DNA of 64,000 bases, from IMG/VR virus record IMGVR_UViG_3300010429_002123, one strand, 5' to 3'. Below, piece after piece: positions 21,041-58,388 of this stretch. This DNA comes from a virus (lineage: Duplodnaviria > Caudoviricetes). Under the pieces are notes generated by a model. That model saw only the letters and a list, made by a program, of their open reading frames with translations, did no database searches and had not been told where the DNA came from. Position 1 is the first letter of the stretch, and the number at the start of each line of letters is the position of its first letter. Made by a program: the position numbers and the translations under genes.

Positions 21041-21664
21041 GTGCTACCTGTGACCGAAAAAATAAACAGACTCGAAGTACATCACCCCCTGTGTGACAGC
21101 CACGAGGGGTTTCCCTGTAACTTCCCCAAAGAGTGTAGAGTAAATTTTACCCTCAAATGCTCCATATGTGGTAAAGAAGAACAGTTCTTTACAAAACTGA
21201 AAGATGAAGAGCTCTTTTCCAACAGGGAATGCAAGAGTTGTGCCGTGTCTCGAACAGTAAGTAATTTTGTGCAAAACTTGGACTTGGCAGACCTTACACT
21301 GCTTACAAGTCCCTCTATGGAGGCAACCTGCGAGGGTAATCTCATATCCCCTAAATTTCAAGCAATGATTGACCATCATCAGCACCTGGTTGATTTACAA
21401 AATTATTTCGAGGACAGAATTATTCGGGGCTTGTGCCTGTCCCAAAACGGGCAAAAAACCGTACGACCCAGTAGTCTGGCTCTCTTAAGACAGCAGGCAG
21501 AGTTGTTTGAAAAACATATTCAATTATCGTGGGTGAGACGAGCCACTTTAGCAAGCGGGGGAAACATACTGTCTCTCACTCATGAAGAGGTAGTAAAGCT
21601 GGAGTTAGAATCTCGTCTGAGGGCAGAAAAAGCCTGTATATTAGTGAAAGAAGAGGAAAGCTAA
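21041..21664 (+). CDS. Zn-ribbon protein with EKAC C-terminal motif
   Basis: CSICG/CKSC; ends RAEKACILVKEEES. Confidence 0.6.
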   Translation: MLPVTEKINRLEVHHPLCDSHEGFPCNFPKECRVNFTLKCSICGKEEQFFTKLKDEELFSNRECKSCAVSRTVSNFVQNLDLADLTLLTSPSMEATCEGNLISPKFQAMIDHHQHLVDLQNYFEDRIIRGLCLSQNGQKTVRPSSLALLRQQAELFEKHIQLSWVRRATLASGGNILSLTHEEVVKLELESRLRAEKACILVKEEES

Positions 21665-21935
21665 GGTGAAAGAAAAACCAGACACGGAAGTTCTGAAAGC
21701 TATAACCTACCTGTTAGAATTAGGAAGAACATCGGATTACTCATTAGAGGACGAACAGCAAAGTATTTTAGATACTCTTCTGTTAAACACTTACTATGCG
21801 GTAAAAGAACATGACGAACGCAAGGAAGAAGAGACCAGACTTTTCTGTGAAAAACTGGGTATTAACAAAACCTCTATAGTCATAGAAGAGAAACACGTAG
21901 GGGAAAACCACTGATTGTTTTTTGTAAAAAACGTC

Positions 21936-21964
21936 TTGACAAGTTTGGCGTCCCGTGTTACACT
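21936..21964 (+). promoter_or_regulatory. promoter
   Basis: TTGACA-17-TACACT. Confidence 0.75.
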
Positions 21965-22005
21965 GAGATAAAAGAGAATGCTTAAAAAGTAGAGAGGAGA
22001 CCTGA

Positions 22006-22371
22006 ATGATTGTGAGTATAGAGCCCACGATTGAAAGAGTATTAAATGTAAATACGTATCTCAACGAGAGGGAGAAAAAAGTTGTTTTAGACCTGGTAAA
22101 GCTGACAGAACCTGGTAAGTTTATCTACCCGGAAGCCTGCCAGCGGAAAGGTGTTCCCCTGCACGCCAGTTCCTACGCTCTGGACAGGTTAAAAGAGAAA
22201 AACTTTCTACAGAAACTGTATGTTCCTTACTGTCTGGACTGCCACAGGTTTGTAGGAGACTTCAACACAATCTTCGAGGCTATATATGAACTGCCTTCAG
22301 ACATGGAGTGCCCACACTGTGATTCGGTAAATGTGGTTCCGAAAATAGTTTATAAAAAGCTAAGTAATTGA
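22006..22371 (+). CDS. hypothetical wHTH/Zn-ribbon protein
   Basis: CLDC...CPHC; GAGGAG RBS. Confidence 0.6.
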   Translation: MIVSIEPTIERVLNVNTYLNEREKKVVLDLVKLTEPGKFIYPEACQRKGVPLHASSYALDRLKEKNFLQKLYVPYCLDCHRFVGDFNTIFEAIYELPSDMECPHCDSVNVVPKIVYKKLSN

Positions 22372-22434
22372 AGTAAATAAACCCTGTTCCCAAGACAGGG
22401 TTTAAGAACGCTTTTAATTAAAAATCTTTTCATA

Positions 22435-22675
22435 GCATCGACGGAAAGTTAAAAATAAACGACAAATCCAGTCGTAGTCCTGAAGTTAACTTCTTTTTAG
22501 AAGTTTTTAGGACAAGGCTTAGAAAGTTTTCAGTGTGTTAGTCACTTAAAGAAAACGAGTAATTAAGCCAGTCTAACGGGTTTCTAAAGAAACATGGTTA
22601 GTTGGAAAGGATGGTAAAAATTCAATAATTGAATCCACCTCATAAATTTCTAAAGAAACATGGTTAGTTGGAAAG
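22435..22675 (+). CRISPR. cassette 6: scaffold plus mini-array
   Basis: Repeats 22580-22609 and 22646-22675; 36-nt spacer. Confidence 0.9.
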
Positions 22676-23870
22676 GAGTGCTGTGTGTGTCAGCCAGTCG
22701 GTGGAAAGGACGGGGGAATGGAGTGTGTGTAAAGCGGAAAGAATGATGAAACAATCTTATATAGAAAAGCGATATAAAAAAGAAAAGAGGTTTATAAAAG
22801 TATGGCCAGGCGGAAAAAAAGTTTGAAAGAATGTAGTTTTTGTGGGGTTTGCTATCAGGGCAGAACCTGTAAAAACTGCATGGAGTTGCCCGACTTCTCT
22901 ACGGAGGCGGACACTATCTGGTTTACTAACGTAGCCCTACGAGCAGTAGACCAGTCGTTTGTTATGGGGATAGTAGATTCTGAAGAAACTTATGCGACAA
23001 AGTTTTTTACCCTCCACAAAAAGCCGGAAAAATCTTATATGTCCCTGACGGTTTACCCATCAGTACCTAAAAGAACGGAGTCTTTAGACAGTCTAACCTT
23101 GACTTACTGTCTTGGAAACACGCAATCTTGCACCAGGAAAAAGATACATAACAGAATTTTAAATATCTTTAAAACTCTGGCTGAAGAGGGTATTGTGCGG
23201 GAGGGAAAGTAGCATGTCCCGTCCTGTCAGTGAGAAAACTTATGCAAGAATGAAAATGTATAATAAAAGTAAATGTGATTCGTGCCATGTTCCTCTCCCG
23301 AGGTATCATACAGATGACGGGTATACTCTTTTAGAGATAGAACTTCCTACGACAATCCTGATTTTTTGTAACGAAAAATGTTATAAGAGATGGAGAACGT
23401 CTGAAAGAGGGAAAGAGGTCTGAGTAGAGTTATGCTTAAGGTCAAAGTCACAAACGGAGTAATTTCTGTGAAGGGAGAAACCTCTCATGGGCAATATGTT
23501 GTTATGCGTACCTACTGGGGTAAGAGGTTTCGTTTACTCTTTGATATAAAGGAAAACACTCCCGCCGAACTTTACCAGAGTATACAGACCTTTTTGGCCA
23601 TGACGAAAACTGACTATCCAGTAAGAATAACTGTAGGTGATTCTTTTATATTTTGCAGTGGAAAGCTCTGCTCCTGGGACATGAGTCCTTACCCCTCTGT
23701 TCCGTGGTGTCATTGCGAGATAGAACTCGATGTTAAAGAAGAAGGAAGAGCTTCTTTGGAAGAAAGAAGAGGAGAGATGACCCCTACAAGTTTAGTTATT
23801 ACCGAAAAAGACTAAGGACTTCTTAAGGGGCGTTCATGAGAAGTCAAAAGCACAGAAAGGAAGAAGAATA

Positions 23871-24683
23871 GTGTTTACTAAGGTTCTTAAAAAGTTTGGT
23901 TTTGGTATCTGGTATCAAAACTTAAATGAGTGTAAGCAGACTCATAAGAAAGGGTTTCCCTGGCATGGGAGAGGTAGTCTTTACGAACAAAGTTCCACGG
24001 GACAGAGAAAATCTTTAGGGTTGGAATGGAGCCTATTCAATAAAAAGATAGCTTTAGGAGTTAGCAACTCTTTTGATTTCTTAGATAATGAAATAAAGTT
24101 TGGATTCAGAATACCGGGGTTTAGCTTGTGGTTACGTGCAGAGAATTTTATGCCTAAATCGTGGCTGAGAAAATGGGAAGAGGCCAGCAGGGAAACTTCT
24201 ATTTCCCTGTTCTATGAAGAAGACTCGAAAGAATGGTTTTTTTCCTGGGAACTCTGGTCAGATGACCTGGGTTGGTCGCAACAAAAAAGAAGCTGGTGGA
24301 GAAAGCAGTTCATAGGCTTAAATTCCCTATTTTGGGGGGAGGAAAAAGTTAAAATGACAACTTATAAGTCCTGTGAATTTCCCATTCCTCTACCAGAAGG
24401 AAACTATCCCGCAAAGATAGAACTCAAGGAGCGGTTAGGGAAAAGAAAAAGGTGGCCTTTTTCTCAAAAACATTTTTCTGCAGATGTGAAGTTTTTAAAA
24501 CCTATCCCCATACCCGGAAAAGGAGAAAACTCCTGGGATTGTGGGGATGACGCTTATTATGGCATGGGTTTCCCATGTAAAAGCGTGGAAGAGGCTGTGG
24601 GGCACGTTGTAACTTCTGTGTATCGAACACGCCTACGATACGGAGGGGAAAGATGTCTTGATTGGAGTGTGGAACATAGTTGA
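23871..24683 (+). CDS. Trp-rich hypothetical phage protein
   Basis: 270 aa; PGKGENSWDCGDDA motif. Confidence 0.65.
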   Translation: MFTKVLKKFGFGIWYQNLNECKQTHKKGFPWHGRGSLYEQSSTGQRKSLGLEWSLFNKKIALGVSNSFDFLDNEIKFGFRIPGFSLWLRAENFMPKSWLRKWEEASRETSISLFYEEDSKEWFFSWELWSDDLGWSQQKRSWWRKQFIGLNSLFWGEEKVKMTTYKSCEFPIPLPEGNYPAKIELKERLGKRKRWPFSQKHFSADVKFLKPIPIPGKGENSWDCGDDAYYGMGFPCKSVEEAVGHVVTSVYRTRLRYGGERCLDWSVEHS

Positions 24684-25693
24684 GAAAAGACTTCACAGTG
24701 ATTGAGCTGTTTGCCGGAGCCGGGGGCTTAGCTCTCGGGCTTGAACACGCCGGATTTAAAACACTGGCTTTAAACGAAAAGAACAAGTGGTGCTGTTCCA
24801 CCCTGAGAAAAAACCGTCCTAATTGGAATATAATAGAGAAACCCGTGGAAGAGGTCGTGTCAGAGGGTATAAAAAAGTATTTTCCGTTTGACAGTGTGGA
24901 TACTCTTTCTGGAGGTTACCCCTGCCAGTCTTTTAGCACGGCTGGGAAAGGTCTGGGCTTTGAAGACATAAGAGGAACAATGCTTTTCTACTATCTTCAG
25001 GTGTTAGAAGAGCTAAAGCCTCGACTCTGTCTTTTAGAGAACGTAAGGGGTCTTCTCTCTCATGACAAAGGTGCTACTATGAAAGTTACTCTTGATATGT
25101 TAGAAAAAGCGGGGTATTTTGTCACCCATAGTCTTCTCAATGCTGTAGACTTTAACGTGGGGCAGAGGAGAGAACGTGTGGTTATTGTAGGAATTAGAAA
25201 AGACTTACCAAAAGACATTTTTACTTTCCCGAAAAAGAGCGACAGAAAGCTCTCCTTACGAGAGGTTTTAAAAGACGTTCCTTCTTCTCCCTGTGCCCGA
25301 TACTCGGCGAAAAGGGCGAGAGTTATGTCTCTGGTTCCTCCGGGGGGTTACTGGAAACATCTCCCCGATGACGTAGCCAGAGATTACATGGGGGCAAGTT
25401 ATTTTTCCGGGGGAGGAAGAACAGGTTTAGCCCGGAAATTATCATGGGATGAGCCTTCCCACACACTAATGTGTAGCCCTTCTCAAAAACTGACAGAGAG
25501 ATGCCACCCGGAAGAAGTGCGCCCTCTCTCTATCAGGGAATATGCCCGGGTACAGAGCTTTCCTGATGGGTGGGAATTTTGCGGTTCCATGCAGGAGCAA
25601 TACAGACAAATCGGTAATGCTGTCCCTGTTAATTTTGCGAGAGCACTTGGACAGGCTTTGCTCTCCTCTCTTGAGAAAATAAATAAAGGTTAA
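24680..25693 (+). CDS. DNA (cytosine-5) methyltransferase, orphan
   Basis: FAGAGG, GYPCQ, ENV, Q.RER, QSFP and GNAV motifs. Confidence 0.95.
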   Translation: MRKDFTVIELFAGAGGLALGLEHAGFKTLALNEKNKWCCSTLRKNRPNWNIIEKPVEEVVSEGIKKYFPFDSVDTLSGGYPCQSFSTAGKGLGFEDIRGTMLFYYLQVLEELKPRLCLLENVRGLLSHDKGATMKVTLDMLEKAGYFVTHSLLNAVDFNVGQRRERVVIVGIRKDLPKDIFTFPKKSDRKLSLREVLKDVPSSPCARYSAKRARVMSLVPPGGYWKHLPDDVARDYMGASYFSGGGRTGLARKLSWDEPSHTLMCSPSQKLTERCHPEEVRPLSIREYARVQSFPDGWEFCGSMQEQYRQIGNAVPVNFARALGQALLSSLEKINKG

Positions 25694-25700
25694 AAATGGC

Positions 25701-25729
25701 TTGACAATTTTTACTACATCTGATATACT
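25701..25729 (+). promoter_or_regulatory. promoter
   Basis: TTGACA-17-TATACT. Confidence 0.8.
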
Positions 25730-25767
25730 TAATGGAAAGCAGAAATAAAGTTGAAAGGAGAATAATT

Positions 25768-26178
25768 ATGAGTCACTTTTGCAGTGTGAAAACGAAAATC
25801 ATGGACGAGGTGTGCCTCAGAAAGGCAATAGAAGACTGCGGTTATAAAGTCATAGAAAACACCGAGGTAAAGAGTTATGAGGGAGAAAAACAGAAAGTAG
25901 ACTTCGCTCTTGACCTAAAAAGCAAATATGGCGTGGGTTTTAAACAGACCCAGGAAGGCTTTACCGTAGTAGCTGACTGGTGGGGCGTGGGCACGGAAAG
26001 GATAAAGGTTCCCACCAAAAAAGAAGAAAACATGAGGGAAAACACCTTTATGGAAGGCATAAACCAGAGGTACGCCTACAGAAAGACTCTCTCTGCCCTT
26101 GAAGAGCAGGGATTTACTCTCGCCGAAGAAACCCTCGGCGAAGAGCAGGAGATATGTCTTACTGTAAGACAGTGGTAA
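25768..26178 (+). CDS. DUF1257/Ycf35-like protein
   Basis: MSHFCSVKTKI...GF...VADWW...Q.YAY...GF. Confidence 0.75.
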   Translation: MSHFCSVKTKIMDEVCLRKAIEDCGYKVIENTEVKSYEGEKQKVDFALDLKSKYGVGFKQTQEGFTVVADWWGVGTERIKVPTKKEENMRENTFMEGINQRYAYRKTLSALEEQGFTLAEETLGEEQEICLTVRQW

Positions 26179-26664
26179 GACACCTGTAAGTCCGTGTGGG
26201 GAAGTATAAGAAGTCTCGACCAAGAAGAAGAGGTAGAAATAGAAATTCTAAATTGGAATCTACGAAAGGAAATACAGAGAACTCCTGGAGTAATGTCCAA
26301 CGTCACGCTTTCTCCTCCTCGTTTCGTCGAGACTTTGTTTATAGAGTTCTTTCTAGCGAAAGCAGGCCACTCTGCCAGTTTGTCTCTCTTGCACAGACAG
26401 GCTTACTACGAACAAAAAACCTTATGGGTTAGTCTTCTTAGTAAACAATTTTTTGAGGGCACGCTGACAAGTCACAGCGTGAGTATGGGAATGGGTAGAA
26501 CCCCCATCTACTCTTTTTCTCTCCTCGGAATGAATACTTCAGGGATTACAGGGTGGGATTACCAAGAAAAGCAACGACTGCTGGAAGAAAGATGTGTTTC
26601 CTTGGGCTTAAATCTAAACTCAGTATCTATAATAGAAATAGAAAGAAAAGAGGAATAATAAGAT

Positions 26665-27171
26665 ATGTATCACATAAAAATAGGTGAGCCCTATATTGAG
26701 AATCACAAAAATTGTTATAAGAAGCACGGAATTACTGAGTGCAGTATAAACGTAAAAACTATTAAGATGCGAGGCTCCCCTGTGTATGGATTTTTAGAAG
26801 CCTCTGAAGGTAATACCCGAAGTCCGGGGTATACTCAGATGAAAATCTTTGCCCAGGAAACGGGGCTGTTTGACTTCTTTTTTGACAGGGATAAAGGGCT
26901 CCTGAGAAGAATCCCCGGAGTCTTTCCCATCATGAAGGGACACTTGAAAAGCCTGACAAAGGCGAGAGAAAACTGGGAAAAGACTCACCCGGACTGTAAA
27001 AACCTTCTCCCCTCACCCAGCAAAACCCCTGAGGATTACCAGATGGACGACCCGCGTTATACAGAGCTTGAACAGAGTTTTGATTGGAACTACGCAAAAC
27101 TCCTCTGGTATGAATGGTGGTTTGAATGGGCTTTAGAGAACTGTCATATGCCCGTAATCTGTAATTATTAG
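26665..27171 (+). CDS. hypothetical phage protein
   Basis: N.RSPGY and L.W.EWW..WAL.NC..P motifs. Confidence 0.6.
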   Translation: MYHIKIGEPYIENHKNCYKKHGITECSINVKTIKMRGSPVYGFLEASEGNTRSPGYTQMKIFAQETGLFDFFFDRDKGLLRRIPGVFPIMKGHLKSLTKARENWEKTHPDCKNLLPSPSKTPEDYQMDDPRYTELEQSFDWNYAKLLWYEWWFEWALENCHMPVICNY

Positions 27172-28288
27172 AGTTCAGGAGGTTTGTAACTATGGGAATT
27201 AGTATCGAGTTGCCTTTATCAAAAGAAGCGTTTGAACTCCTAAAAACCTTACCCCCAACCCTTTTGACTTTAGAAAAGATATGCGAGGAAGAACGAAGAG
27301 ACTCTGACATCTTTTTTATAGAATATTTTCTTTACTCTTGTCTTAGCCCAGAGGAGGGTTGCTGGCATAGACCTCGATATGTCACGAACCCCTTACTTAC
27401 AAACACACATATGACAAATGAATTTCCCTCTCTCGACCAAGCCCGTAATGCTCTTTATTGCACGGAATGTCGAACAAAGTGGCCTTTTCGCGTGACGAAG
27501 TTTAAAAACAGCCAAGTGTCCTCTTACAATGGGGCGTTTTATTCCTCTATAGGGAAAAAGATTTCTTTTCCAGGAGAGATTGTTTATAGAAACTCTCAGC
27601 CTTTACCGGAAGGGGGTGTTGATTAATGGCCATGTTTTTACTCCGTCCCCCTGGCGAAGAAAAGACTGCGGAAAACGTGCAGTTCGAGCCTGATATTTAT
27701 ATCCCCATGTCACACAAAACGCGAGTAACTTCTATATACCCGACGTCGAGATGTGAAAGTTGCGGGGCTAAAGACTTTAAATTTGATAAAACTATAGGTG
27801 CGTATAGATGCGAATATTGTCAAAGTGTTATCCCTGTTCGATGTTAAAAATGAAAGGAGAGTGTAACATGCATTGCTCGTTATTAGATGAAAAGTAAAAA
27901 GTATCATACCTTTGCTGTGCTTACAGAAAATAATTGCTGGTATGAGCTTTTAGAGTCAGATATAGAAATCAAAAGAAACGAAGGAGAAGAAGCCTACAAA
28001 CGTCATAAGGACTTTCTGGAGCAGGAATGGCTAAACTTTTTCTATAAGACACTGGAAGAAGCCTCCCCGGATGACCTGTTGACTGTCGTAGACTACAAGG
28101 GGTAAGATGAAAAAGGAAATAGTAATTCAACAAGACCTGAATCTTCAGAAAACATATAATGAAGGTTTTTTTGCGGGAGCAAAATTTATGTTCCAAAAAT
28201 TCTATACTTTTATGAAAGACGGAGGAAATCTCGTGGAGTTCAGAGAAGACGCCATAATCCTGGGAGTAGAGAGGGGTGACGAAAACAA

Positions 28289-28888
28289 ATGAACATTTTT
28301 TTCACGGCTGACAGCCATTTTTTTCATAAAAACATTATTTCCTACTGTCAACGCCCTTTCAAATCAGTTGAAGAAATGCACAAAGTACTGATAGAAAACT
28401 GGAACAAAGTAGTAGGAAGAAATGACCTTGTCTACCACCTGGGGGATTTTGGCATGGGTAACATCTCTGATTTGCAAAAGCTAAGAGAGAAGCTCAACGG
28501 ACAGATAGTTCTTATCGCCGGAGGACATGATAAAGCTATAGTAGCCGACCTTATAGCAAGTGATTACATGTTCCTGAAAATAAGGCACCTGCTGACTCTT
28601 CAAACTTCCATAGGTAAAATTGTTCTTTGTCATTACCCCCTGAGGGTATGGGATTGTTCTCACTACAATAGCTACCACTTATTCGGCCATTGTCATGGCT
28701 CTCAAAAGACGTGGGGAAAGTCTTATGACGTCGGTGTAGATACTAATAACTTTACTCCTCTATCTCTCTCGGAGATAAGTAACATCATGAAAGACCTGCC
28801 GGATAACCCTAACCTTTGTAGGGGTCGGGAAGTGTCTGAAGTAATAGAAAGGCACAAGAATTATGCACAGACGACTCAACCTGCGTGA
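28289..28888 (+). CDS. calcineurin-like metallophosphoesterase
   Basis: ADSHF.H, HLGDF, GGHD, HYP, GHCH. Confidence 0.9.
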   Translation: MNIFFTADSHFFHKNIISYCQRPFKSVEEMHKVLIENWNKVVGRNDLVYHLGDFGMGNISDLQKLREKLNGQIVLIAGGHDKAIVADLIASDYMFLKIRHLLTLQTSIGKIVLCHYPLRVWDCSHYNSYHLFGHCHGSQKTWGKSYDVGVDTNNFTPLSLSEISNIMKDLPDNPNLCRGREVSEVIERHKNYAQTTQPA

Positions 28889-29776
28889 ACTGCAGGAAAT
28901 AGCAGAAGACGTAGGAATAGAAAACATTGAAATGCGTGTGGTTTCAGACCCGGAGAAAGACTGGGAGGCACATTTATTAAAACTTCCAGAGGTGATGCAG
29001 TGGCTTCTTCTCCGAGATAAAAGGTGGGCAAGATTTTTAAAAGAGGAATTTTTCTTCAAGTTCTTTCGCCCTGTGTTCTGGATACGAATAAAAGGGGAAG
29101 AAATGGAAAAGGAAGAGCTGGAAGCCTGGGAAAACCTGCCCCTTTACCGAAAGGAGAAAGAACATGAGGTGGAAGTGTAGATGTGACAAATGCGGGGAAC
29201 TTTTTACAACCTCATGCTGGACAAGAGAGAAGTGTAAGTGTCAGCAAGAAGAAGTAGAGACTCTTTCCGCAGAGGGGTTCGTGGAGGCGTTGAAAAACTT
29301 TCAGTTCCCCGAAGTAAAGAGAATAAAGCCCACCCTGCTTGCCGATGAACTTGTAGGCTGTAAGCCTCTTCAGGAACTTTCAGAGTTTAATCTTAAAAAG
29401 TCGAGAGAGGAGGTGTGACTCGTGAAAAAAGCCCAACCTTTTCGTCTTATATACCCTGAAGTCCTGTGCCCTATTTGTGGAAAACGGGCAGAAAGAGACC
29501 CGGGAGGAGAAATTGAGTTTCTTAAAGGAATCAGACTCAAATACAAATGCTGTGGGATAGTGATAAAAACAGAGTATGTGCTCTCCGACTGTGATACGGA
29601 CATTCCCAGATGGAGTTTTTCTAAACTCAGGGAAGGCAGTGAGGCGGAAAAAGCCGAAGCTACGTGGAAAAACCTGACACAAGCTATATTTAAAGCCGTT
29701 TTTTAAAAAGTATGAGGGAAAGACGCAAAGAAAAGAGAGGAAAAAGTGGAGGATAGAGAGGGGAAAGACACAAGAG

Positions 29777-30793
29777 GTGAATCGAAAAGACATTGAGTAC
29801 GTACTGGATTATCTTGGGTGTAAAGATACGATTGTAAGAGGAGACACTATTACATTTAGTTGTCTGCTGGCAAAGTATGAACCAGCACATTTTGGTTCAG
29901 ACAGAAGACCGAGTTGTAATGTAAAAATCACAGATGGGATAAGCCCGACTTACTGCTTTGCCTGTGGTAAGCACGGAGGACTCCTAAAATACATGTGGAA
30001 ATATTGTGGATATGCGGGGTATAGTCAGGCACAGATTCAGTATCTAAATGATTTTATTCTCTGTGCTGAAGACACTTTATTGCAAGACTTGCTGGGCAAG
30101 CCAATTAAGAGAGAGCCTGCAGTCGAAGAAAGGCTTCTCGATGCTCTCGGTAATTTCGAATACTGTTATGAGTTTAAGAAAAATGATGAGTTAAGGTTGC
30201 TTGGGAACGAGTCCTGGTGGGAATTTTGGCAAGTTGGAGGAAAGGACGGGAGAGTTCTGTTTCCTCTTATAGAAAAACGTTCGGGGGATATAAAGTTTGT
30301 GCAGGGAAGACTGATGAAAGACAACATGGAGGGACCAAAGTATAAAACCTACCCAAAAGGTGCCTCTATAAGTAAGTATCTCTTCGGGGAACATATGCAC
30401 ACCCCTCAAAAAACTACAGGAATAATAATGGAAGGTATAGTAGACACGATAAACACCAATTACCTTCTAGAAAAAGAGAAGTTTCATGACACTCTGGCCG
30501 TGGGACTGATGGGAAAAAACGCTTCGGACGCCCAGGTAACAAAGATAAAATCTTATTTCCAAAAGGTTATTCTTATGCTTGATAATGACCCTCCGGGAAG
30601 AACGGGGGCTTATACTCTGGAGCACAAACTTAAAAATTCCATGATAACATATGGTGTAACTTACCCGGAAGGTTTTAAAGACCCGGATGACTTATGTCAT
30701 TCAGACAGGCTGTTTGAGGTGCTTTCTACTAAGGAGACACACTTCGAAAGAACCTTGAAGGCTCTTGTTTCCCGGGCAGTTGCAAAAAGTTAA
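29777..30793 (+). CDS. DNA primase (Zn finger plus TOPRIM)
   Basis: CFACG, MEG..D, LDNDPPG, KDPDD. Confidence 0.85.
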   Translation: MNRKDIEYVLDYLGCKDTIVRGDTITFSCLLAKYEPAHFGSDRRPSCNVKITDGISPTYCFACGKHGGLLKYMWKYCGYAGYSQAQIQYLNDFILCAEDTLLQDLLGKPIKREPAVEERLLDALGNFEYCYEFKKNDELRLLGNESWWEFWQVGGKDGRVLFPLIEKRSGDIKFVQGRLMKDNMEGPKYKTYPKGASISKYLFGEHMHTPQKTTGIIMEGIVDTINTNYLLEKEKFHDTLAVGLMGKNASDAQVTKIKSYFQKVILMLDNDPPGRTGAYTLEHKLKNSMITYGVTYPEGFKDPDDLCHSDRLFEVLSTKETHFERTLKALVSRAVAKS

Positions 30794-33302: not shown

Positions 33303-33815
33303 ATGTTAAATCAAAACGGAAAGCAGGCTGTGGAGGAAATAATAAGGATTTTAAGAGAGACTGGTGAGGGACTGGAGACCCCTCACCAACAGATACTCAT
33401 TAAGCAGGCCGAAAGACTCGAAACTATGCTCCCGGCCATGATAAGACCTATGCCCCCGCAAAAAGAGTTGCTTGCGAAGCGTTTTCCTGAGGCAGAACAC
33501 AAGACGAGAAAAGGTGCTCGTGGGAAACAGCTCACCTATGTAGAAACTGTAAATTACATAGACAGGTTAAATGAAATATTCGGCCTGCACTGGAGCTGGG
33601 AACTGACTGAGCAGGGTGCTGACGAAGTAGGTGTGTGGAGTCGTGGAAGGCTCACTATCGAGATAGACGGGAAAACGGTAGTTAAAGAGGCATACGGCGG
33701 GAACGACAAAAATGGAGAAATCGGGGACGCCCTGAAAGGTGCTTCTTCTGACGCCCTCAAAAAAGCCTGTTCACTGCTTGGTATGGGTCTTTACATGTAT
33801 AGAGATAAAAAGTAA
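33303..33815 (+). CDS. Rad52/Sak-like ssDNA annealing protein
   Basis: LTYV...IDRLNEIFG..W...KGASSDALKKA...GMGLYMY. Confidence 0.9.
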   Translation: MLNQNGKQAVEEIIRILRETGEGLETPHQQILIKQAERLETMLPAMIRPMPPQKELLAKRFPEAEHKTRKGARGKQLTYVETVNYIDRLNEIFGLHWSWELTEQGADEVGVWSRGRLTIEIDGKTVVKEAYGGNDKNGEIGDALKGASSDALKKACSLLGMGLYMYRDKK

Positions 33816-34706: not shown

Positions 34707-35411
34707 GTGGTGACAGCCTCTGGAGTCCCTATTATGTTAGAAGGAACTCCCCTTCGACCCGTAATGACAGAAAACCCTCGGCCTGTCGTGAGGGAACGTA
34801 ATCTCACTGACTTTGTTTCCCGTTACTTAAAATTTCCAGAAGGCTTAACTTCCTGGCAAAAAACTGTAGAGGAGCAGACCTGCAAGCACATGGTAAGAAC
34901 CTCCGGCAGAGGGGGAAGTTTTTGCTTTTGTCAGGGGTCTTCCTCGGAAGAAGGAAAGACTACTTATCTTCTTATGAAAGCTCTTTTTTTCTGCGTACGT
35001 TTCGGAGACTTTCACGCCCTCTTTGTAGCTGAAGAACGCGACAATAAAGTTTTCTCAGAGTTCTTTAGCCTGTTAAAATTCACTCCCCTTATGTCCTATC
35101 TTAAATGTCTGGAAGGTTATAGTAGGAAACTTTTTTTCACTAACGGCTCTTCTTTTACGGAGACGTGCACTATGGCTACACAAGGAAACTTCTGGTATAG
35201 GTTCTTTCAAAAGCAGATGTCCTTTGAGGCTGAAAAACTCGAGCAGGAATTTTTCACTAAGCCCAACGACGGTTCCCCCGATGGTAAAGTTTACAGTTTT
35301 ATTTGTGTTGACAGAAACCCTCAGATAGCTTTTTATATTAGAAACCCCTTTTTGTTGGGCTTGGAAGACCCGTGCGTCATAACAGAGATAGAGAGGAGGG
35401 AATTATTATGA
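34707..35411 (+). CDS. truncated terminase-ATPase-like protein
   Basis: WQ motif, GKTT, LFFTNGS; no nuclease domain. Confidence 0.4.
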   Translation: MVTASGVPIMLEGTPLRPVMTENPRPVVRERNLTDFVSRYLKFPEGLTSWQKTVEEQTCKHMVRTSGRGGSFCFCQGSSSEEGKTTYLLMKALFFCVRFGDFHALFVAEERDNKVFSEFFSLLKFTPLMSYLKCLEGYSRKLFFTNGSSFTETCTMATQGNFWYRFFQKQMSFEAEKLEQEFFTKPNDGSPDGKVYSFICVDRNPQIAFYIRNPFLLGLEDPCVITEIERRELL

Positions 35412-36151
35412 CCCCGGGTGACTGCCCAGACTTTACGACGAGAACAGACACTTATGAAGAAAGGAAGGCTATGTTCAGACGTGACCTAATTTACGTAGAC
35501 GGTATACCTAAAACGTATGTCACCTTTCTCGGTCACCAGAAAATAACTCTTGATTCCTTTCCGGCTTATGTGGGAAACTATCTGTCTGCTACTTTTGGTT
35601 ACGGCCTAAACTTTTTTCAGAGAGAGTTAGATGCCCGCATTGAAGAAGCAAAAACTTTTCCTATTGTAATTTACGACAGAGAGTTAGACGTGAGTTATCT
35701 GGGACGCCCCGAAAGCCCGTGGGGGAAGACTGAATACATTGTTGCAAAATCTTTATTTTATTGTCTCACCAGCGAAAACCTCCGGGCAAGAATACTCGTT
35801 AACAGTGTATATTCAGATAGTTTTGATATTATCGAGACGGCTTACACCTTCCTTCTAAACTCCCCTCTGTTTCATCGGGTATCAAAAGTTAAAAAAACAA
35901 AAGACGTGTATCACCCCAGAACAGAGCCCTTTATTGTCTTTACTTCGAACTCCTCTCTGCACGCTTGTGAGGTTTGCTCTCATTCGTCAAGGTTTCTTGG
36001 GGGGTTTTCCGAGGGGTTACCTGAGCCTTTCCAAGAAGCACAGATAGACTTTTTTGTGCTGGTATCTCCTGACAAGACAGGAATATATAAGAGTCCGAAT
36101 ATTCTGCTAAGCGAAGAGAAAGCCTGTATCATCACGGGGCGTGACGAGTAA
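35372..36151 (+). CDS. truncated terminase-ATPase-like paralog
   Basis: FQ motif, GKTE..AKSLFYC, IVFTSNSS; ends EEKACII. Confidence 0.4.
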   Translation: MRHNRDREEGIIMTPGDCPDFTTRTDTYEERKAMFRRDLIYVDGIPKTYVTFLGHQKITLDSFPAYVGNYLSATFGYGLNFFQRELDARIEEAKTFPIVIYDRELDVSYLGRPESPWGKTEYIVAKSLFYCLTSENLRARILVNSVYSDSFDIIETAYTFLLNSPLFHRVSKVKKTKDVYHPRTEPFIVFTSNSSLHACEVCSHSSRFLGGFSEGLPEPFQEAQIDFFVLVSPDKTGIYKSPNILLSEEKACIITGRDE

Positions 36152-48633: not shown

Positions 48634-48863
48634 GACCAAGATTGTCTCACTATACCGTAAGAAAGAAGGGTGAAAAAACTATGTCTATTACAGAGATAGC
48701 CATAAAGAACCGAAATGAGGCGAAAAACTTTCTCGATAACCTCCACATTAAACACAGAGAGACTCTTGTAAAAGAGGGGGCTCTCCGGGAGAACGAGAAG
48801 TTCTGGGGGTGTGATGAGTGTGGCTGTTATCTAAGAGAATTTCGCCCCGAAGAAAAAACAGAC

Positions 48864-48917
48864 CAGTATACTCAGGATACTCAGGATACTCAGGATACTC
48901 AGTATACTCAGTATACT
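48864..48917 (+). repeat. six 9-bp coding tandem repeats (CAGKATACT)
   Basis: Encodes QYT/QDT x6 in ORF 48642-48992. Confidence 0.85.
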
Positions 48918-49549
48918 GCGGAAAAACACTATATAATTATACCAGAAAACGGAACCAGATTTTTTCACGAGAAAATCGCCTGCTTTATCTGACAGGAAAG
49001 AAGGGTAAGAAATGCCAGCAGACACTCAAAGTTCGGCTACATTAAGTCTGGGTGAGGGGACAGTGAGTTTTAACGGGCGTAGCATAGGCTACATTCAGGG
49101 TGAACTCACTGTGTCTTACCCCCCGTCCCCAAAAAACCGGGTGAGACTAGACTTTACCTGCCACGTGTGTGGGAAGTCTGTAAGGTGTAAGGGAGGACGG
49201 TACGCCCACGAAGGCGAAATAGTTACAACATATTGCCCAAACTGCAAGCGAACAACTCGGGGGAGACTCACCATAGTTTATTTTATGTCCGGGTCACCTC
49301 TGGGTAAGTTAAAAAGCAGTTATTATCTTGCGAAGCTCTCACCTATCGAGGAGAACCTTTCTCAGAAAAGTTCTTGCACGATAGAAGAGATAGAAAGAAC
49401 ATGATTTTTTCTTTATAAATTAGGGTTCTACATCAGGAAAAGAGTTGACTCAACCCCTACCTGTATGTTACAATAAACATGTGATGAAAAGTCACAAGCC
49501 TCTGAAAGAGGCGAGGGATTAGAAGTCCCACATTAAAAGAAGGAGTGAT

Positions 49550-50242: not shown

Positions 50243-50249
50243 AAGAAAA

Positions 50250-50278
50250 AGAAGCCTGGGAGTTTCCCGGGCTTCTTA
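50250..50278 (+). terminator. intrinsic terminator-like hairpin
   Basis: AAGAAGCCTGGG..CCCGGGCTTCTT. Confidence 0.55.
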
Positions 50279-50998: not shown

Positions 50999-53900
50999 GT
51001 GCAGATATTACAGACAAGACAGGTCATAGCATTTGATACAGAATACGTAGACCGTGACTTTCCTAACGTTGATGTAGTAGGAATGTCTCTTGCATGGAAA
51101 GAGAACGGCCACGTAGACGGTTGTTACATACCTGTTGGGCACACAACGGGGGAGTCACAGTTACCTATAGAACTCGTTGCCGGGGCTATGAAACCCATAC
51201 TAGAAGACCCCGAAAAATTGATAGTCATGCACAACATGAAAGCTGACATAAAAGCGTCCTGGCTTATGGGTATTTACATAGCGGACGCTCCTTACTGGAA
51301 CGCCCTTCTGAACGAGGGGATTACTATTCCTTACAAAAAAGCCATAAGAGAAACCCACTTATGGGACACCATGCTTGCCTCCTGGATACTCGAACCGGAA
51401 AGAGAAATTTCTCATAAGTTAAAAAAGCTTGTAAAAGAACTTCTCGGGTATGAGATGCAGGAGCTGACAGACTTTGCTCCCAGAGAAAAAGCCTTGTTTA
51501 CAAAAACAGGAAAACCAGTTAAGTTAAAAGCTAACGAAGTTGCCCCTGATGAAACGAAGGTTCAGATATTAAAAAAGAGCAAAAAAGCTCTTCTGAGAGT
51601 AGATAAAGTCCCCATAGCCTCCCTCGGCAGGTACGCCTGGGACGACGCCGTGTGGACTTATAAACTGTATGAATACTTCAAAAACATCATAGAAACCTCA
51701 AATGCGGGGAAGGATAACAAGATTTTCTATGAAGTTCAACTCCCCTTTGCTGTAGTGCTTACGGAAATGGAAATCATAGGCTCTCCCATAGACGTCGCTT
51801 TACTGAAAGACATGGAAACAAGAGCAAAAGCAGAACTGGTAACGATAGAGAATAGGATTTACGAGTTGGCAGGAAAAACCTTTAACATAAAGAGCACAAA
51901 ACAGTTAAATGAGGTGCTTTTTGACACTCTCGGCTTAAAGCCTGAGGGTGACATGAACAAAAAAGGGGAATACTGCACAGACAAAGACGTAATGAGAAAA
52001 TATAAGAGAGAGTATGATGCCTTTAAGGCAGGTCTGCAGAAAAAGGGGGCTGAATGTGAAATAGCCTACTGGATGCTAAAACAGAGAGAGCTTACTAAAC
52101 TCATCGGGACATATCTGGAAGGTCTCGTCCTGTTTGCCAAAAACGGCAGAATTCATACCAGTTTCAACCAGCTTTCAAAAGATGAGAGAACCGGAACAAA
52201 AACCGGGAGGTTGAGTTGCGTGGCTAAAGATACGTTACTCTATGTAAAGACCGGAAGAGGCCGGGGAAAACTTCAGGAAGTTGAAATATCCAAACTTGAC
52301 TTGACCATACCCACGAGAATTATGACATGTGAGGGAAGATATAAACCCATAAACAAACTGATTTTCAAGGGTGAGGACGACCTCTACGAAATAACCACAA
52401 CTGCCGGGTGGAGACTGGTATGCACAAAAGAGCATCAAATCCTAACCCCTCACGGATGGTGGGTATCTGTTGGAGGCTTATTCGTAGGGCAAGAGGTCTA
52501 CGGAAACAAGCATAGGTGCACTCCTACAAACTGCACAGGTTACAAAAGAAGCTTCATAACCGCTATACGTCCCTTTGGAAGAGGGGAAGTATGGGACATA
52601 GAGGTAGCAGAAGACCAGTCTTACTACGCCGGAGGCTTTTTAAACCATAACAGTTCGAATCCTCAAATGGGGCTACTTTCCGGTGACGGAAAGTTAGAAT
52701 CTCTGTTAACTCGGTGGAATCTAAGTTTCTCTCCAGAGGAATATGACAATACCGAGCCGAGCTTCGCAGGAATGCGAAGAAGGTGTAACGACTACCTTGA
52801 TGTAATCTAGAACAGATAGAAAAGGCACGAACACAGAGTATCTTAGGTTGATTACCAAGATTGACAAAATATTTCTCCCGTCTATAATAAGAGCGAGGTG
52901 AAGAAAAATGAGAAATGATTGGACTAAGTCTGAAATAGCGTGGTTCAGAGAAAACTACCCAAAACACGGGTTGCATTACTGTTCTGATATTTTAAAAAGA
53001 ACCACAAGTGCCATTCTAATGAAGGCACATTTATTAGGTTTAAAAAGACGAGGAAAAGGAAGAAAAGACAGGGTGTATACATACGACGGTTACATTACTG
53101 TTTCCTCTGAGGGTGATAGATACCAAGTGCACAGAAGAGTAATGGAAAACCATATAGGAAGGAAACTGTCAACAAAAGAGTTAGTTCATCACAAAGACGG
53201 AAACAGAAAAAACAATTCCATTGAAAACCTAGAAATTTTGTCAAGAAGTGAACACATGAAAATTCACTACCCGCAGAGAATGAGAAATTCAAAAGGTCAG
53301 TTCGCCTAAGATAAAGATATAGTCTGAACTTGCGGGAAACCGCAAGAATTTCAGGATAAAGAGCCTGAAAGGTAACAAAATGAATTTGCAGAACATCTCA
53401 CATAAGTCAGACTATAAGGTAAGGAAAGCCTTTAGTTCTTCCGGGGAAGAGGGCTGGAAATGGCTGAGACTGGATTACTCACAACTGGAGTTAAGAGTGG
53501 GAACTCACTTCAGCAAAGACCCGGAGATGATGAAAGTCTACATGAACGATGGAGACATTCACAGCACCACGGCAAAAGGAAGTTTTAATCTAGACTGTGA
53601 GGCCAGCGAAGTCAAGGCAAAATATCCCGGTTTTCGGGACAAAGCAAAAGTCGTCAACTTCGGTATGGTAAAAAATGCCGAAGCGGGGGAAGATGTAATC
53701 CCCATTAAACCTGCTCAAAACGGGGGAATCCGAAACATAGGCCAAAATCAGCTAAGTTGTGGGCTATCCCGTGCTACTCTTAAGGACAAGCGTAGTGTAT
53801 CGACTTTGCTTACTCGGTGTAGGGTAAGCATAAATAAACCGTCTGTTCTCTACTAATTAGAGAATAAATCAATCGAGTTTATTTACACGGCAGGCAAAAT

Positions 53901-56900
53901 GTGCTAAAGTTAATATAAAGGAGTGGTATGGATGACTGACGGACAGAAACTTTGTAAAAAATGTAAACTACCTTTTATACTAACAGGAAATAATCAACAA
54001 TATTGTCTTTTTTGCAAAGAGGACAGAGCAAGGGAGAGAGGGAGACTTCGTTACAAAAATACCCGCGTAACCCCCGTAAAAAAGGAAAGATTGGTTGGGA
54101 AAAATCACCCGGGGTTTAAAACGGGCGTAGGTCGTAGTTACTATTGTAAACTCGCCTTCTCAACATATGGGAAAATTTGCTGTCTCTGTGGGGGGTTACA
54201 GAACTTATGTGTTCACCACAAAGACGAAAACAGGTTTAATAATGAGGTTGAGAACTTAGAGGTTATCTGCAGAAGATGTCATGCTAAAAAGCACAATCTT
54301 CATAAGTCTTTACCAAAAGGGAATCGGTTGTCAGAGTGCAAAAAAGAGCAAGTAAAAACTTTTAAGAGGGACGAAAACGGAAAATTTATTAAAAAGCACA
54401 TTTAAAGGTATAGTCACACTGTATAGAAATTTACAGAAAAAGGATTTTTTACGGAATGGGACCAAGTTCTCTTGCAGAAACCATAAACAAAGAACTTGAC
54501 GACCCAAGAGACTTTTTAACGGAGGAAGAAGCTAAAAAAGCTATTTCAAACTTTATGGCTACTTACAAAGGCGTTTCACGTTATATTGAAAAATATAAAG
54601 ACATAGCCAGAGAAGTCGGGGTTGTAAAAACCCTGACAGGAAGAGCTCGCCCCTTACCCGCAGCGATGGTTAAGGCTCCCTGGAAAATAGCCGACCCGAA
54701 GGAGAGAAAAAAAGCTATTGAGGAAAAAGGACACGCCGAAAGGGCTGCGGTAAACTGCTTCGACGAAGAAACAGAGGTGCTTTCCCAAAGAGGCTGGCTT
54801 TCTTACAAGAACTTAACTGCCTCAGATGTGTTAGCCACAATAACGGGGGAAGGTGTTTTAGAATGGGACACTCTAATAGCTGTCAGTATGTTCCCGGGCT
54901 ATGATGAACCATGCATAGAGTTCTCTCACCCGGAAATAAGTGCCCTTACAACCAAAAATCACAGGTGGCTTGTATATGACAGAGTAGAAGCCAAAAACTT
55001 TTTTGTAACTACTGAAAATCTTTGTGCCCGGCACGAGATATTAAAAACTGCTACAAACCCACAGAAAGAAGCAGGTATTTCAGACATGGAACTTCTGAAA
55101 CACCCCCTTTCTCTGGAGTTTCTACTAAATCTGTCCCAAAGACAGTGCAGACTTCTTTTAGAAACCCTGATAGGAACAGGGTCTACTTCAATAAGCCCTG
55201 ACCTCTACCAGATACTGTGCTTTTTATCTGGGAAGAGCTATGAACTCTCCTTTAGAAACCTGTCTTCATACGCTGGATACACTCCCGGAAAGGACAGAGT
55301 TTATCTCCTCCCTGAGCACAAAAAAGAGAAAACAGTCTCTTTTGTCTGGTGCCCTACTGTAAAAAACGGGACGGTTGTGGTCAGAAGAAAGGGCACGGTT
55401 TATATCACCGGTCAAAGCCCCATTCAGGGGTGTCTCCCATCTTCCGCTCGAATTCTAACCCTTGAGGGATACAAGACTATAGACAACTTGATAAAGAGTT
55501 ATCCCGGAGAGAGACTGCAGGTATGGACGGGTTTTAACTGGAAACCAGCAAAAGTTCTCCCTATGGGTAAGGCTCCACTCATGAAAGTGACTTTTAAAAA
55601 CGGCTATAGTGTAAAGTGTGACAACCGTCACAACTTTAAAGTCCTTTCCGACAAACTGGAGTGGAAAAATATCTTGTCTCTTAAAGAGGGGGATATGGTC
55701 GCCACTCCTTACGGAGAGCAACACTTCGGGCAATACAACGCGAGAAACCTGGACATCTACAGGGGTAGAAATATTTGTGAACGGAGGTTTGACTATAATC
55801 TTCTCTTTTACCTCTCAGGTTTTCTGCTTTCGAGGGGAGAAATCATAGATGAGGGTGAGAAAACTCACATAAAGATTAGATTTACAACTTCTCTTCTTTC
55901 TAGTCGGGTCATAACCCTTGAAGAAAAAGTAAGAAACGTGCTTGTTAAATCTCTCTTAGAGAATGGAATCCTCTTTACCTGTGAGAGCAGGCGAAGAGAC
56001 GTGGGGACATCCCCCCATTCAGTTGTTGACCTTATAATAACTGACCAGCAGTTGCTTAAAGTTTTCTTAAGAGAGTTTGACGTCAGGAGTGGAAAAGTCC
56101 CTGAGCACATTTATAAGAGTGTCCACCCCTTACGCAGGCTGTTCTTAAAAGGTCTCGTGGAGGGAGGAGGACAACTCGACGGGAATAAAGTAATTCTTAC
56201 TTTTTCTGAACGTAATCTGGCTGAAGAGATAGCCTTTCTCTTAACCTCCGGGGGTTTTGTCTTCGAGGTAAAGAACTCTCCTAAGCTATCTCTATACCAG
56301 ATAACAATACAGCACAAACACGCCTTCCTGGCCTGGATTGGAATTTTCTCCGGCTCTTTCTACAACAGGACGAAGAAAAAATGTCCCGATGTATACATAA
56401 AAGAGTTTTTTGAAAAATTCACCCGAAACGCCAGAGGAAGGGTTACTCCCGGAATAACCCGCCAGTCCTACAGATACAAAGAACTGTTAGAGAAAAGACC
56501 AGAAAAATGCCATTTACATTTCCTGTACAAAATGGCAAGAGATTTCGGAATTGTCTTTGACGAAAAGTATGACTACCTTATAGTAGATAAAATTGAGTAT
56601 CTCGGTGAGGAACAGGAGATGTACACCCTTTCTGTTGACGACGACTTACATCAATTCGTAGCAGACGGGGTAATAGCCAAGAATAGTGCCGCCGACATAG
56701 TCTCAATAGCTATGAGAAACATTCGCCTGAAGCTCATGGAGACCGGAGACTGGTGGAAAAATTGCCAGCTCTTAATCCAGGTGCACGATGAGCTCAATTT
56801 TTTGATAAAGGAAACAGAGATAGAAAGGTTAGTTCCTCTCATAAAAAGTGAGATGGAAAGTGCGGTTAAGCTAAGAATACCCCTGGTGGTGGATTACCTT

Positions 56901-56930
56901 GTTGGGGTGAACTGGTTTGAGTGCAAGTAG
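50999..56930 (+). CDS. polA: family A DNA polymerase; exons ~50999-52663, 53383-53664 and 54444-56930; three inteins
   Basis: AFDTE exonuclease motif; spliced TGRLSSSNPNLQNI, DYSQLELR, AKVVNFGIFYGMG, NSPIQGSAADI, QVHDEL. Confidence 0.93.
52217..52651 (+). mobile_element. mini-intein 1 in Pol (145 aa)
   Basis: LS|CVAKD...TKEH...VWDIEV...NHN|S. Confidence 0.9.
52664..53382 (+). ncRNA. group I intron 1 in Pol
   Basis: Exon ends in U (CCT), intron ends in G; AAGATATAGTC element; splicing restores SNP-NLQNI. Confidence 0.9.
52908..53309 (+). CDS. intron-encoded HNH homing endonuclease
   Basis: HR.VME...VHHKDGNRKNN..ENL; internal promoter TTGACA-16-TATAAT at 52861. Confidence 0.9.
   Translation: MRNDWTKSEIAWFRENYPKHGLHYCSDILKRTTSAILMKAHLLGLKRRGKGRKDRVYTYDGYITVSSEGDRYQVHRRVMENHIGRKLSTKELVHHKDGNRKNNSIENLEILSRSEHMKIHYPQRMRNSKGQFA
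53665..54443 (+). ncRNA. group I intron 2 in Pol
   Basis: P1 CTTCGGT.AT/ATGCCGAAG with U-G pair; AAGGTATAGTC element; terminal G; splicing restores NFG-IFYGMG. Confidence 0.9.
53923..54405 (+). CDS. intron-encoded HNH endonuclease
   Basis: CCLCG...VHHKDENRFNN..ENL...C..CH. Confidence 0.9.
   Translation: MVWMTDGQKLCKKCKLPFILTGNNQQYCLFCKEDRARERGRLRYKNTRVTPVKKERLVGKNHPGFKTGVGRSYYCKLAFSTYGKICCLCGGLQNLCVHHKDENRFNNEVENLEVICRRCHAKKHNLHKSLPKGNRLSECKKEQVKTFKRDENGKFIKKHI
54756..55415 (+). mobile_element. intein 2 in Pol (220 aa, ends Gly-Gln)
   Basis: N|CFDEETEVL...TKNHR...VWCPTV...ITGQ|S. Confidence 0.85.
55431..56684 (+). mobile_element. intein 3 in Pol (418 aa, ends Lys-Asn)
   Basis: QG|CLPSS...MYTLSV...IAKN|S. 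Confidence 0.88.
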
Positions 56931-57866
56931 GGAAAACAATTATCCCGTCGAAACCGGCGGGATAATCTTCCCGTAAAAAGAAAGGAAAAAAGTATGTTAA
57001 TGAAAGCTAAAATATTAGGTGTGGACACACCCCCTGGAACAGTAACTTACGGGGTGAGGTGTACAGAGTGTGAAAAAGGACATGAGATTTCAGTCCCGAA
57101 AGAAGAGGGTTTTCCAGCAAAACTTGGAGATACTTTTGATAAAAGCGAGATACTGCAACACCCAAAAGGAAAAATAATCTGGCCTGTCAGGGAGCTGTGT
57201 CGCTCTTGCTTTAAGGCGAAAACAAGATGGTGTTATGACTGTGAGAAAAAGATGGAATTTGAGAAAAGTTACCCTGTGATGATAGAAAAAGAGTTAGTAA
57301 TTTTATGCGAAACGTGCAAAAAAGCGAGGGAAGACTGGAAAGAAAAAGGGGAAACCTGCCACCATTGTAAGGAACCCTTAAAGTATATGGACTATTGGAA
57401 AGTAGTAGAGGACATAACTAATACTGGTAAACCTTTTGAGCCTTATTTCCTCTGCAATGAGTGTAGAGACAGACAAGAAGAGGAGATTTTATCAAAATGC
57501 TGATGAAAGAGGTAGTCAAACTCCAGTCCGTTTCTTTTGTAGCAAAAGGAAGAGTAATTTGTGTGGGTGACGCTCCCGGAGCTTATAAAATTCAAATACT
57601 ACCTCCCCCACTGAATATACTCAGAGCACTGGGCAACATGTTTTTCAGTGCGGGGGGAATAAACATGTGGCCTTACATGCCAATACCCTTTCTCTTTTGT
57701 GAACTTCTGGGTTTTCCTAGAGAGCATCTGAAGTTACTGCACGCCGGTCTCGCCAGAGAAAAAGCCTGTGTCCTTACGGGAGACACTGAAAAGGATTTTC
57801 GTTATCACGAAAAGGAGTCTCGTTGCCACGAAAAGGATTTTCGTGATAACGAAAAGGAGGAGAACT

Positions 57867-58388
57867 ATGTTTTCAGAACTTGAAGGGGCACTTTCAGAAC
57901 TTGAATTTTACTCGGAAGAAGGCAAAATAAAAGGCTCAGCTTTAAAGGCGGGGAGAATCAATGCCAATAATAGAATCTACCCGGAAGAAGTAGTAAGGGA
58001 GGCTGTTAACAAGGCCAGAGAAAAGGGGGGTATCCCTGTGGTCTTTGCTGATTCTTCAATTGAAATTCCCACACCCATATCTTCTTTCTGTGGGGTAGTC
58101 ACAGACCTATCCATAGACGAGGGGTCTAACCTTATATTCGAGGCGAGCATTTTAGACTCTCCAAAAGGTCACCTACTGGCTGAGTCTTTACGAAGTGGTA
58201 TGTCTTTCACTGCATCTGTAAGCGGTTATGGTAGGGTTGAAGACCTCGATGGCCTAGTTCTTGTATCCGAGGGGTATGAACTAGAAGCCGTGCACCTTAC
58301 TCCCACGCGAGGGACACAGGTGCGAAAGCTGACAGAATTAGAAAAGAAACTGCTGGAAGAAAAAGCCTGTTTGTTCTACAGCGAGTAA
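57867..58388 (+). CDS. prohead core protease-like protein (T4 gp21 type), possibly inactive
   Basis: N.N.RIYP, ILD.PKG, SVSGYG; ends EEKACLF. Confidence 0.6.
   Translation: MFSELEGALSELEFYSEEGKIKGSALKAGRINANNRIYPEEVVREAVNKAREKGGIPVVFADSSIEIPTPISSFCGVVTDLSIDEGSNLIFEASILDSPKGHLLAESLRSGMSFTASVSGYGRVEDLDGLVLVSEGYELEAVHLTPTRGTQVRKLTELEKKLLEEKACLFYSE

Follow-up and report, generated by a model that had tools for sequence, protein, structure and literature searches.

Bacteriophage T4 provides the closest described systems for the genes considered here: the coat protein gp23, whose most conserved part, Gol, binds domains II–III of EF-Tu and activates cleavage of EF-Tu by Lit of e14 (PMC3014915; PMC8829019); the prohead protease gp21 (PF03420; structure 5JBL); gene 40, which lies between uvsX and 41 and encodes a head vertex assembly chaperone; and gene 61.1, directly upstream of primase gene 61, on whose product we found no functional study. 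Here we describe a 64,000-nt stretch of DNA from an uncultured phage (Caudoviricetes; IMG/VR record IMGVR_UViG_3300010429_002123), hereafter the window, in which three open reading frames (ORFs) are partial copies of the phage’s own virion proteins, each matching its own structural gene. They comprise a catalytically dead paralogue of the prohead protease (57867–58388), a zinc-ribbon protein bearing a block of the coat protein (29164–29418) and a second zinc-ribbon protein bearing a short motif of two tail proteins (49012–49404).

The source record is a single contig of 183,650 bp, of which the window represents bases 23699–87698 on the minus strand; fuller assemblies of the same uncultured phage, whose head genes are T4-like, reach 217–234 kb. 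Nearly all genes of the phage point in one direction, and the window is a non-structural region that includes replication and recombination genes. A preliminary description had flagged seven ORFs here as resembling fragments of virion assembly proteins, several fused to zinc ribbons and none in a structural operon, and had proposed that they form a set of decoys against host sensors or inhibitors of competing phages. All seven are present on the + strand at the positions given there, and all lie outside the structural module, which is found 35–70 kb upstream of the window; zinc-ribbon patterns (CxxC...CxxC or CxCxxC...CxC) are visible in the ORFs starting at 29164, 49012 and 21041.

Each flagged ORF was compared with Pfam, with PHROGs and with every ORF of the genome, the structural proteins were searched against the six-frame translation of the window (tblastn), and shuffle controls were run on pairwise matches (reported as z). 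Structural homology was detected in three ORFs and not in the other four, which reduces the proposed set to the dead protease and the two motif-bearing zinc-ribbon miniproteins. As a background control, all pairs between 139 non-structural ORFs and 89 structural-region ORFs were scored; noise set in at 8.8 bits and below, and the matches above that level were those of the protease (27 bits), coat (13 bits) and tail (13 bits) copies, together with one pair (window-equivalent 77388–77759, 12 bits) that was rejected as a low-complexity artefact. A tblastn search for pseudogene relics, using the coat, portal, protease, tail and large terminase (TerL) proteins against the six frames of the window, revealed no more fragments near the three matches, and the TerL matches were to inteins only.

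The copy scoring highest in this control, a pseudo-protease of 173 amino acids (aa), is a gp21/S77 paralogue encoded on the + strand between the DNA polymerase and helicase genes. It matched phrog_207 (E 7e-11), the Pfam S77 family (PF03420; E 1.6e-4, 21.7 bits, under the 27-bit cut-off) and the phage’s own prohead protease (E 2.5e-7, shuffle z 16.9), and its matches in 96 deposited phages fell, in each, only at the annotated head protease. An AlphaFold2 model, which leans on an alignment of 55 gp21 relatives, reached a predicted local distance difference test (pLDDT) score of 84; its best PDB matches in Foldseek were three chains of T4 gp21 (5JBL; E 1e-8, template-modelling score 0.57–0.61), followed by herpesvirus proteases.

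The prohead-protease likeness, the missing histidine and the altered SVSG motif reported in the preliminary description are all borne out. In alignments, Thr69 (58071–58073) occupies the catalytic His position of G-E-x-x-H-P, with E66 and P70 retained, while Ser117 (58215–58217) is kept in a motif that reads S-V-S-G against the family’s S-[ST]-R-G, the arginine having gone. The D-P-S-A-P block and everything C-terminal to it are missing, their place being taken by one amphipathic helix and the tail ..EEKACLFYSE. By contrast, the family-invariant N..N.R.YP, E66, P70, S117, G120 and G122 are all present, and an N-terminal F-S-E stands where true proteases have their I-S-E self-cleavage site; because these features are retained, the protein seems shaped to associate with the true protease or with that enzyme’s substrates. 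Set beside T4 gp21, the pseudo-protease thus shares fold, family, the motifs N.N.R.YP, E-x-x-x-P and S..G.G, and an N-terminal hydrophobic-S-E, but has Thr for His, lacks the SxRG arginine and is without both the DPSAP block and the C-terminal region. Nor does its gene adjoin those for portal and scaffold. An intact gp21/S77 prohead protease is encoded separately, in the structural module, as a 711-aa fusion with a long scaffold-like extension. Both His and S[ST]RG are intact in 79 of the 79 nearest IMG/VR relatives, and the 2620 phage records that carry the S77 family yielded only 14 extra matches in total. A homologue search with the pseudo-protease returned the phage’s own proteins only. 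Judged by its sequence, the protein is a rare non-catalytic paralogue and cannot be a Ser/His protease.

The pseudo-protease gene starts at ATG 57867, and the longer ORF taken in the preliminary description, from 57768, runs through a leader built of repeats. This structured leader (57786–57866, + strand) consists of ~21-nt units ACGAAAAGGATTTTCGTnAnC and then the Shine-Dalgarno sequence AAGGAGGAG; the units fold as one 18-bp hairpin directly 5′ of the latter (−25.9 kcal/mol, z −3.8). Every unit forms a small inverted repeat centred on GGA, and tandem units of this kind stand between promoter and Shine-Dalgarno sequence of at least four genes, the others being at window-equivalent 71682, 82902 and −10572, all outside the window. 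These leaders could be a shared translational-control element of the GGA-hairpin (CsrA-like) type.

The coat-protein mini-copy, an 84-aa protein encoded on the + strand at 29164–29418 behind a Shine-Dalgarno sequence AAAGGAG 9 nt 5′ of its ATG, joins an N-terminal Cys-rich zinc ribbon (C5, C7, C10, C18, C24 and C26) to the coat-protein N-arm or ‘Gol’ block. The copied block occupies residues 29–69 (nt 29248–29370, ..FQFPEVKRIKPTLLADELVGCKPL) and matches residues 50–90 of the phage’s own gp23-type coat protein (major capsid protein, MCP; PF07068, E 9e-64) with a pairwise E of 6e-7 and a shuffle z of 9.6, so the capsid likeness first seen by eye holds as a motif match. When the MCP was searched against the six-frame window, the mini-copy was recovered at E 6.7e-4 and the next best match at 0.3. 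A profile of the MCP block built from related phages (MCPs 26–49% identical to the phage’s own, which was excluded) found only the MCP and the mini-copy among the 989 ORFs of the genome, the mini-copy at 17 bits and E 2e-4 and the next ORF at 0.79; its score rose with the profile, as that of a truly related sequence would.

The mini-copy contains the conserved block FP.irR.fP.LIA.ELV..QP and lacks a full HK97-type capsid domain (PF07068): 41 residues align, with no Pfam match and no further similarity in any frame. The block aligns with V99–M117 of T4 gp23, VRRAIPNLIAFDICGVQPM, and about 10 of 22 core positions agree with the family consensus; the Gol region (gp23 residues 93–122) includes this segment. 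Here, unlike in gp23, the Gol-type block is free-standing on an 84-aa protein, and an EF-Tu or Lit-like partner is putative only. A tblastn search of 50,697 phage records with the mini-copy found no significant match; among its chance-level top matches, capsid genes were represented only by Agrobacterium phage Atu_ph04, in two records, where the match lay at this very motif. A homologue search with the mini-copy likewise returned the phage’s own proteins only. A complex prediction of the mini-copy with the coat protein scored 0.00, with the partner’s fold itself uncertain, and so gives no verdict either way.

The tail-motif miniprotein (130 aa; 49012–49404, + strand) carries, at residues 6–37 (nt 49027–49122), the motif LG.G.l.fNGr.iGY..G..tV, common to the N-termini of two adjacent tail-module proteins, followed by a CxxC...CxxC zinc ribbon and the tail ..SSCTIEEIERT. 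The two are a major tail protein of 254 aa (phrog_807, E 8e-12) and the 359-aa protein adjoining it, both in the structural module; residues 6–37 matched the 359-aa protein with z 6.7 and tblastn E 0.014, and the 254-aa protein with z 4.4 and E 0.78. A three-way pattern L-G...G...G-Y..G lies at an equal distance from the N-terminus in the miniprotein and in both tail-module proteins. The comparison supports a tail-motif match for residues 6–37 only, weaker than those of the other two copies. No usable relatives or solved homologues of the tail proteins were found. All three copies have plausible ribosome-binding sites and sit in tight + strand operons bounded by TTGACA-17-TAtAcT promoters.

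The position of the mini-copy has counterparts elsewhere. Its gene lies two genes upstream of, and on the same strand as, the gene for a Toprim-type DNA primase (29777–30793, +). In T4, the 54-aa product of gene 61.1 copies gp23 residues 57–93 (46% identity, E 8e-10); in cyanophage P-RSM6, the 125-aa ORF CPXG_00033 (NC_020855.1 20492–20869), two genes upstream of the primase gene, copies residues 57–81 of its own MCP (80% identity, z 16). Only 25 residues of the latter ORF, copied from the N-terminus of the mature MCP, are coat-like; a Lys-rich stretch and then an unrelated domain make up the rest, and the ORF’s automatically assigned RefSeq label, ‘major head protein’, is misleading. Both are small same-strand genes upstream of primase that copy the N-terminal region of their own MCP. 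They take in the maturation site and N-fist and end Lys-rich, whereas the mini-copy has the N-arm block and a leading zinc ribbon. No direct sequence similarity was detected among the mini-copy, T4 gp61.1 and the P-RSM6 ORF, and compared with the gp61.1 family (phrog_1823) the mini-copy gave no PHROG match, has a zinc ribbon in place of the leader resembling a capsid-targeting sequence and has no Lys-rich tail. On the sequence comparisons, the slot and the principle recur across the three phages, each copy tracking the N-terminus of its own coat protein. That T4 and a cyanophage use the slot too points to an ancient housekeeping or assembly function and not to lineage-specific counter-defence.

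A role as accessory factors of head or tail morphogenesis, or as minor head components, is what we tentatively regard as the most likely for the three copies, and we place it first because the slot is conserved, because T4 too encodes head helpers within its replication gene clusters and because the protease copy has kept its non-catalytic features. By analogy, T4 gene 61.1 and the cyanophage ORF would be the foremost precedents, as free-standing copies of the phage’s own coat N-terminus beside primase. T4 gene 40 is likewise a head-assembly helper inside a replication cluster, but has no sequence relation to the three copies, whose role we infer. In such a role the copies, unable to catalyse or to polymerise, would substitute for the copied surface and bind its usual partners: the dead protease might hold on to L/I-x-E-type substrates, to the scaffold or to the protease oligomer without cleaving them; the N-arm copy might occupy the docking site of the coat protein’s N-arm, or the host partner EF-Tu; and the tail-motif copy might cap or chaperone the N-termini of tail proteins.

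Several observations count against an assembly role. The piece copied here, the N-arm, is adjacent to and not the same as the N-fist copied in T4 and P-RSM6, and a zinc ribbon replaces the Lys-rich tail, which leaves a common origin of the slot genes conjectural; in Agrobacterium phage Atu_ph04, no such ORF was found upstream of primase. In sequence searches the three copies are orphans beyond the phage lineage, so that conservation and selection are not measurable. Both miniprotein matches are short (26–41 residues), that of the tail motif is borderline window-wide (E 0.014), and the reference tail proteins were themselves assigned by position and a single PHROG match (phrog_807).

The copies might instead be evolutionary debris, functionless fragments of structural genes captured by illegitimate recombination in a plastic early region and fused to zinc ribbons, in which case the four unsupported ORFs would simply be orphans. 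The region is indeed rich in orphans, inteins and mobile endonuclease-type genes, the zinc ribbon of the mini-copy is weakly like those of HNH endonucleases (E 0.028), and homologues outside the phage lineage are lacking. Yet the coat remnant is exactly the most conserved functional block, in frame and behind a good ribosome-binding site, with no decayed continuation in other frames; the protease copy has an intact, confidently modelled fold with its invariant non-catalytic residues; and equivalent mini-copies recur in T4 and P-RSM6. On balance we consider debris possible but doubtful. A further proposal is that the copies act in a dominant-negative way on related phages in the same cell, as poison subunits that would block a rival’s capsid, protease or tail assembly while sparing the phage’s own. 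Incomplete copies could bind yet not propagate assembly, and at one position the miniprotein’s LLADELV is nearer the related-phage consensus LIANELV than the LISNELV of the phage’s own coat protein; but one residue is no evidence, and since the best matches of the copies are the phage’s own proteins, timing or degradation would be needed to keep the phage from poisoning itself. We regard this proposal as very unlikely.

Counter-defence, in the spirit of the decoys first proposed, would have early products of host-type promoters occupy, without activating, the sensors or host factors that read conserved virion surfaces, as a Gol-like peptide competing for EF-Tu against a Lit-type protease or a dead protease competing for a sensor of prohead protease might do. 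In gp23, the counterpart of the copied coat block is the best-conserved segment of the protein; it binds EF-Tu and permits cleavage by Lit (PMC3014915). The triggers of CBASS, CapRel, Avs and DSR2 are reported to include a T1-type prohead protease and capsid and tail proteins (reviewed in PMC13728456). The genes sit in operons with host-type promoters, and the window encodes a homologue of the anti-Gabija protein Gad1, a sign that the phage invests in counter-defence. Against this, a protein that imitates an activating ligand should set a sensor off, and would block it only if it had diverged just right, and sensors of the Avs and DSR2 type read whole folds, which motifs of 26–40 residues cannot reproduce. 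The primase-adjacent slot is moreover occupied in T4 and in a cyanophage as well, phages with different hosts and defences. The searches returned no relatives in which co-occurrence with defence systems could be followed, and there is no known defence partner. We therefore think counter-defence unlikely. A broader proposal, which we rate as less likely again, is that T4-like phages make ‘display’ copies of their most conserved virion surfaces before the real proteins, pre-occupying host factors and immune sensors (EF-Tu/Lit-type, capsid and protease) so that late synthesis goes unnoticed; this would be an undescribed strategy. The assembly role remains our preferred reading.

The four other flagged ORFs appear to be unrelated small proteins or orphans. 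Two had been read as terminase ATPase halves without a nuclease. Half A (34707–35411, +) and half B (flagged as 35372–36151, + strand, with a likely start at ATG 35408, giving 35408–36151 and 247 aa as in public assemblies) are tandem members of an orphan family of three paralogues, the third lying 33 kb downstream; no other relatives were found in Pfam, PHROGs, PDB, the 5.8 billion indexed proteins (word-indexed search) or the 1.84 billion representatives (exhaustive profile search). Like T4 gp17 and the phage’s own TerL, the halves carry the co-linear micro-motifs GKTT (or GKT) and then NGSS, about 63 residues apart (64 in gp17); unlike them, they have no nuclease, and their P-loop differs in length from paralogue to paralogue, in no case matching the canonical GxxxxGK[ST]. 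Similarity to terminase was absent at the profile, pairwise and profile-profile levels (probabilities of 0.14–0.21 and Smith-Waterman z of −1.6 to 2.2 against the phage’s TerL and T4 gp17), and an AlphaFold2 model from a 3-sequence alignment reached pLDDT 34 and was unusable for fold search. A terminase ATPase identity is unsupported for want of detectable homology, and the true terminase subunits lie elsewhere.

The ORF at 21041–21664 (+), previously called portal-like, is a zinc-ribbon protein that ends ..AEKACILVKEEES and has no detectable profile, pairwise or six-frame similarity to the gp20-type portal (PF07230), its shuffle z of 0.7 being at chance; the phage’s own gp20-type portal is encoded in the structural module (PF07230, E 7e-65). 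Of the two ORFs with supposed tail-tube-like strands, only the tail-motif miniprotein stood up, for its residues 6–37; the other (26194–26658, +; ending ..VSIIEIERKEE) has no detectable similarity to any tail protein, with shuffle z at chance (0.6 and 1.6).

Six of the seven flagged ORFs, and several neighbours, share a similar C-terminal tail of the form ..E-K-A-C-[ILV]-[ILF].. or ..C/S-x-I-x-E-I-E-R.. (21629–21664, 26620–26658, 35375–35411, 36119–36151, 49375–49404, 57761–57790, 58362–58388 and others). Of 39 cases of a Cys followed by two aliphatic residues in non-structural ORFs, 12 fell within the last 14 residues (2.9 expected, p 2e-5), versus one of 20 in structural ORFs. The ‘KAC’ of these tails is encoded by the codons AAAGCCTGT in four of four cases, and the charged end of the tail is the Shine-Dalgarno sequence of the next gene read in frame. 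The Cys-aliphatic part is possibly an address peptide, a recombination joint or an RNA element. A split-intein origin was rejected: intein profiles matched only RecA, polymerase and helicase.

Elsewhere in the window lie a replication and recombination set with a DnaB-type helicase, the primase and an intein-bearing RecA and helicase, as well as a C5 methylase, a TnpB-like nuclease and the 304-aa Gad1 homologue (141–1055; PF25705, E 6.5e-35). A family-A DNA polymerase is encoded by two ORFs (50999–52810 and 54456–56930), each with intein-type segments, and between them (52908–54405) are three small ORFs, two of which are mutual paralogues; the arrangement may reflect a split polymerase, an intron or mobile endonuclease genes. 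A 170-aa ORF (33303–33815) with the C-terminal end ..SDALKKACSLLGMGLYMY resembles by eye the signature of Rad52/Sak-type single-strand annealing proteins. The promoters of the window are strong and host-type, with an extended −10, and recur between operons.

The structural module also contains a tape-measure-sized ORF of 2675 aa. A profile search of the 183,650-bp record gave no Terminase_6N or Terminase_6C signal; a walk along public contigs found the true small (TerS) and large terminase genes beyond the end of the record, on contig NODE_212, with TerS at 14662–15279 (phrog_309, E 4e-38) and an intein-bearing TerL at 15321–17528 (phrog_2, E 5e-15). Upstream of them on NODE_212 are a radical-SAM gene and a ParB-like gene. 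Assemblies of the phage diverge by a ~17-kb segment after window-equivalent 70096, and the search for a diverged relative by walking public contigs recovered rearranged versions of the same phage only.

Second prohead proteases that are catalytically dead are rare (no more than 14 extra matches in 2620 records), which makes this one a ready probe of the binding partners of the protease. The block copied by the mini-copy is the site through which the Lit abortive-infection system senses T4, and with the 84-aa protein one can ask directly whether free peptides serve phages to modulate EF-Tu/Lit-type sensing. Through the mini-copy, an uncultured phage is linked with a cyanophage ORF and with gene 61.1 of T4, itself unstudied; the link suggests a conserved function, so far uncharacterised, for which T4 could serve as the experimental system.

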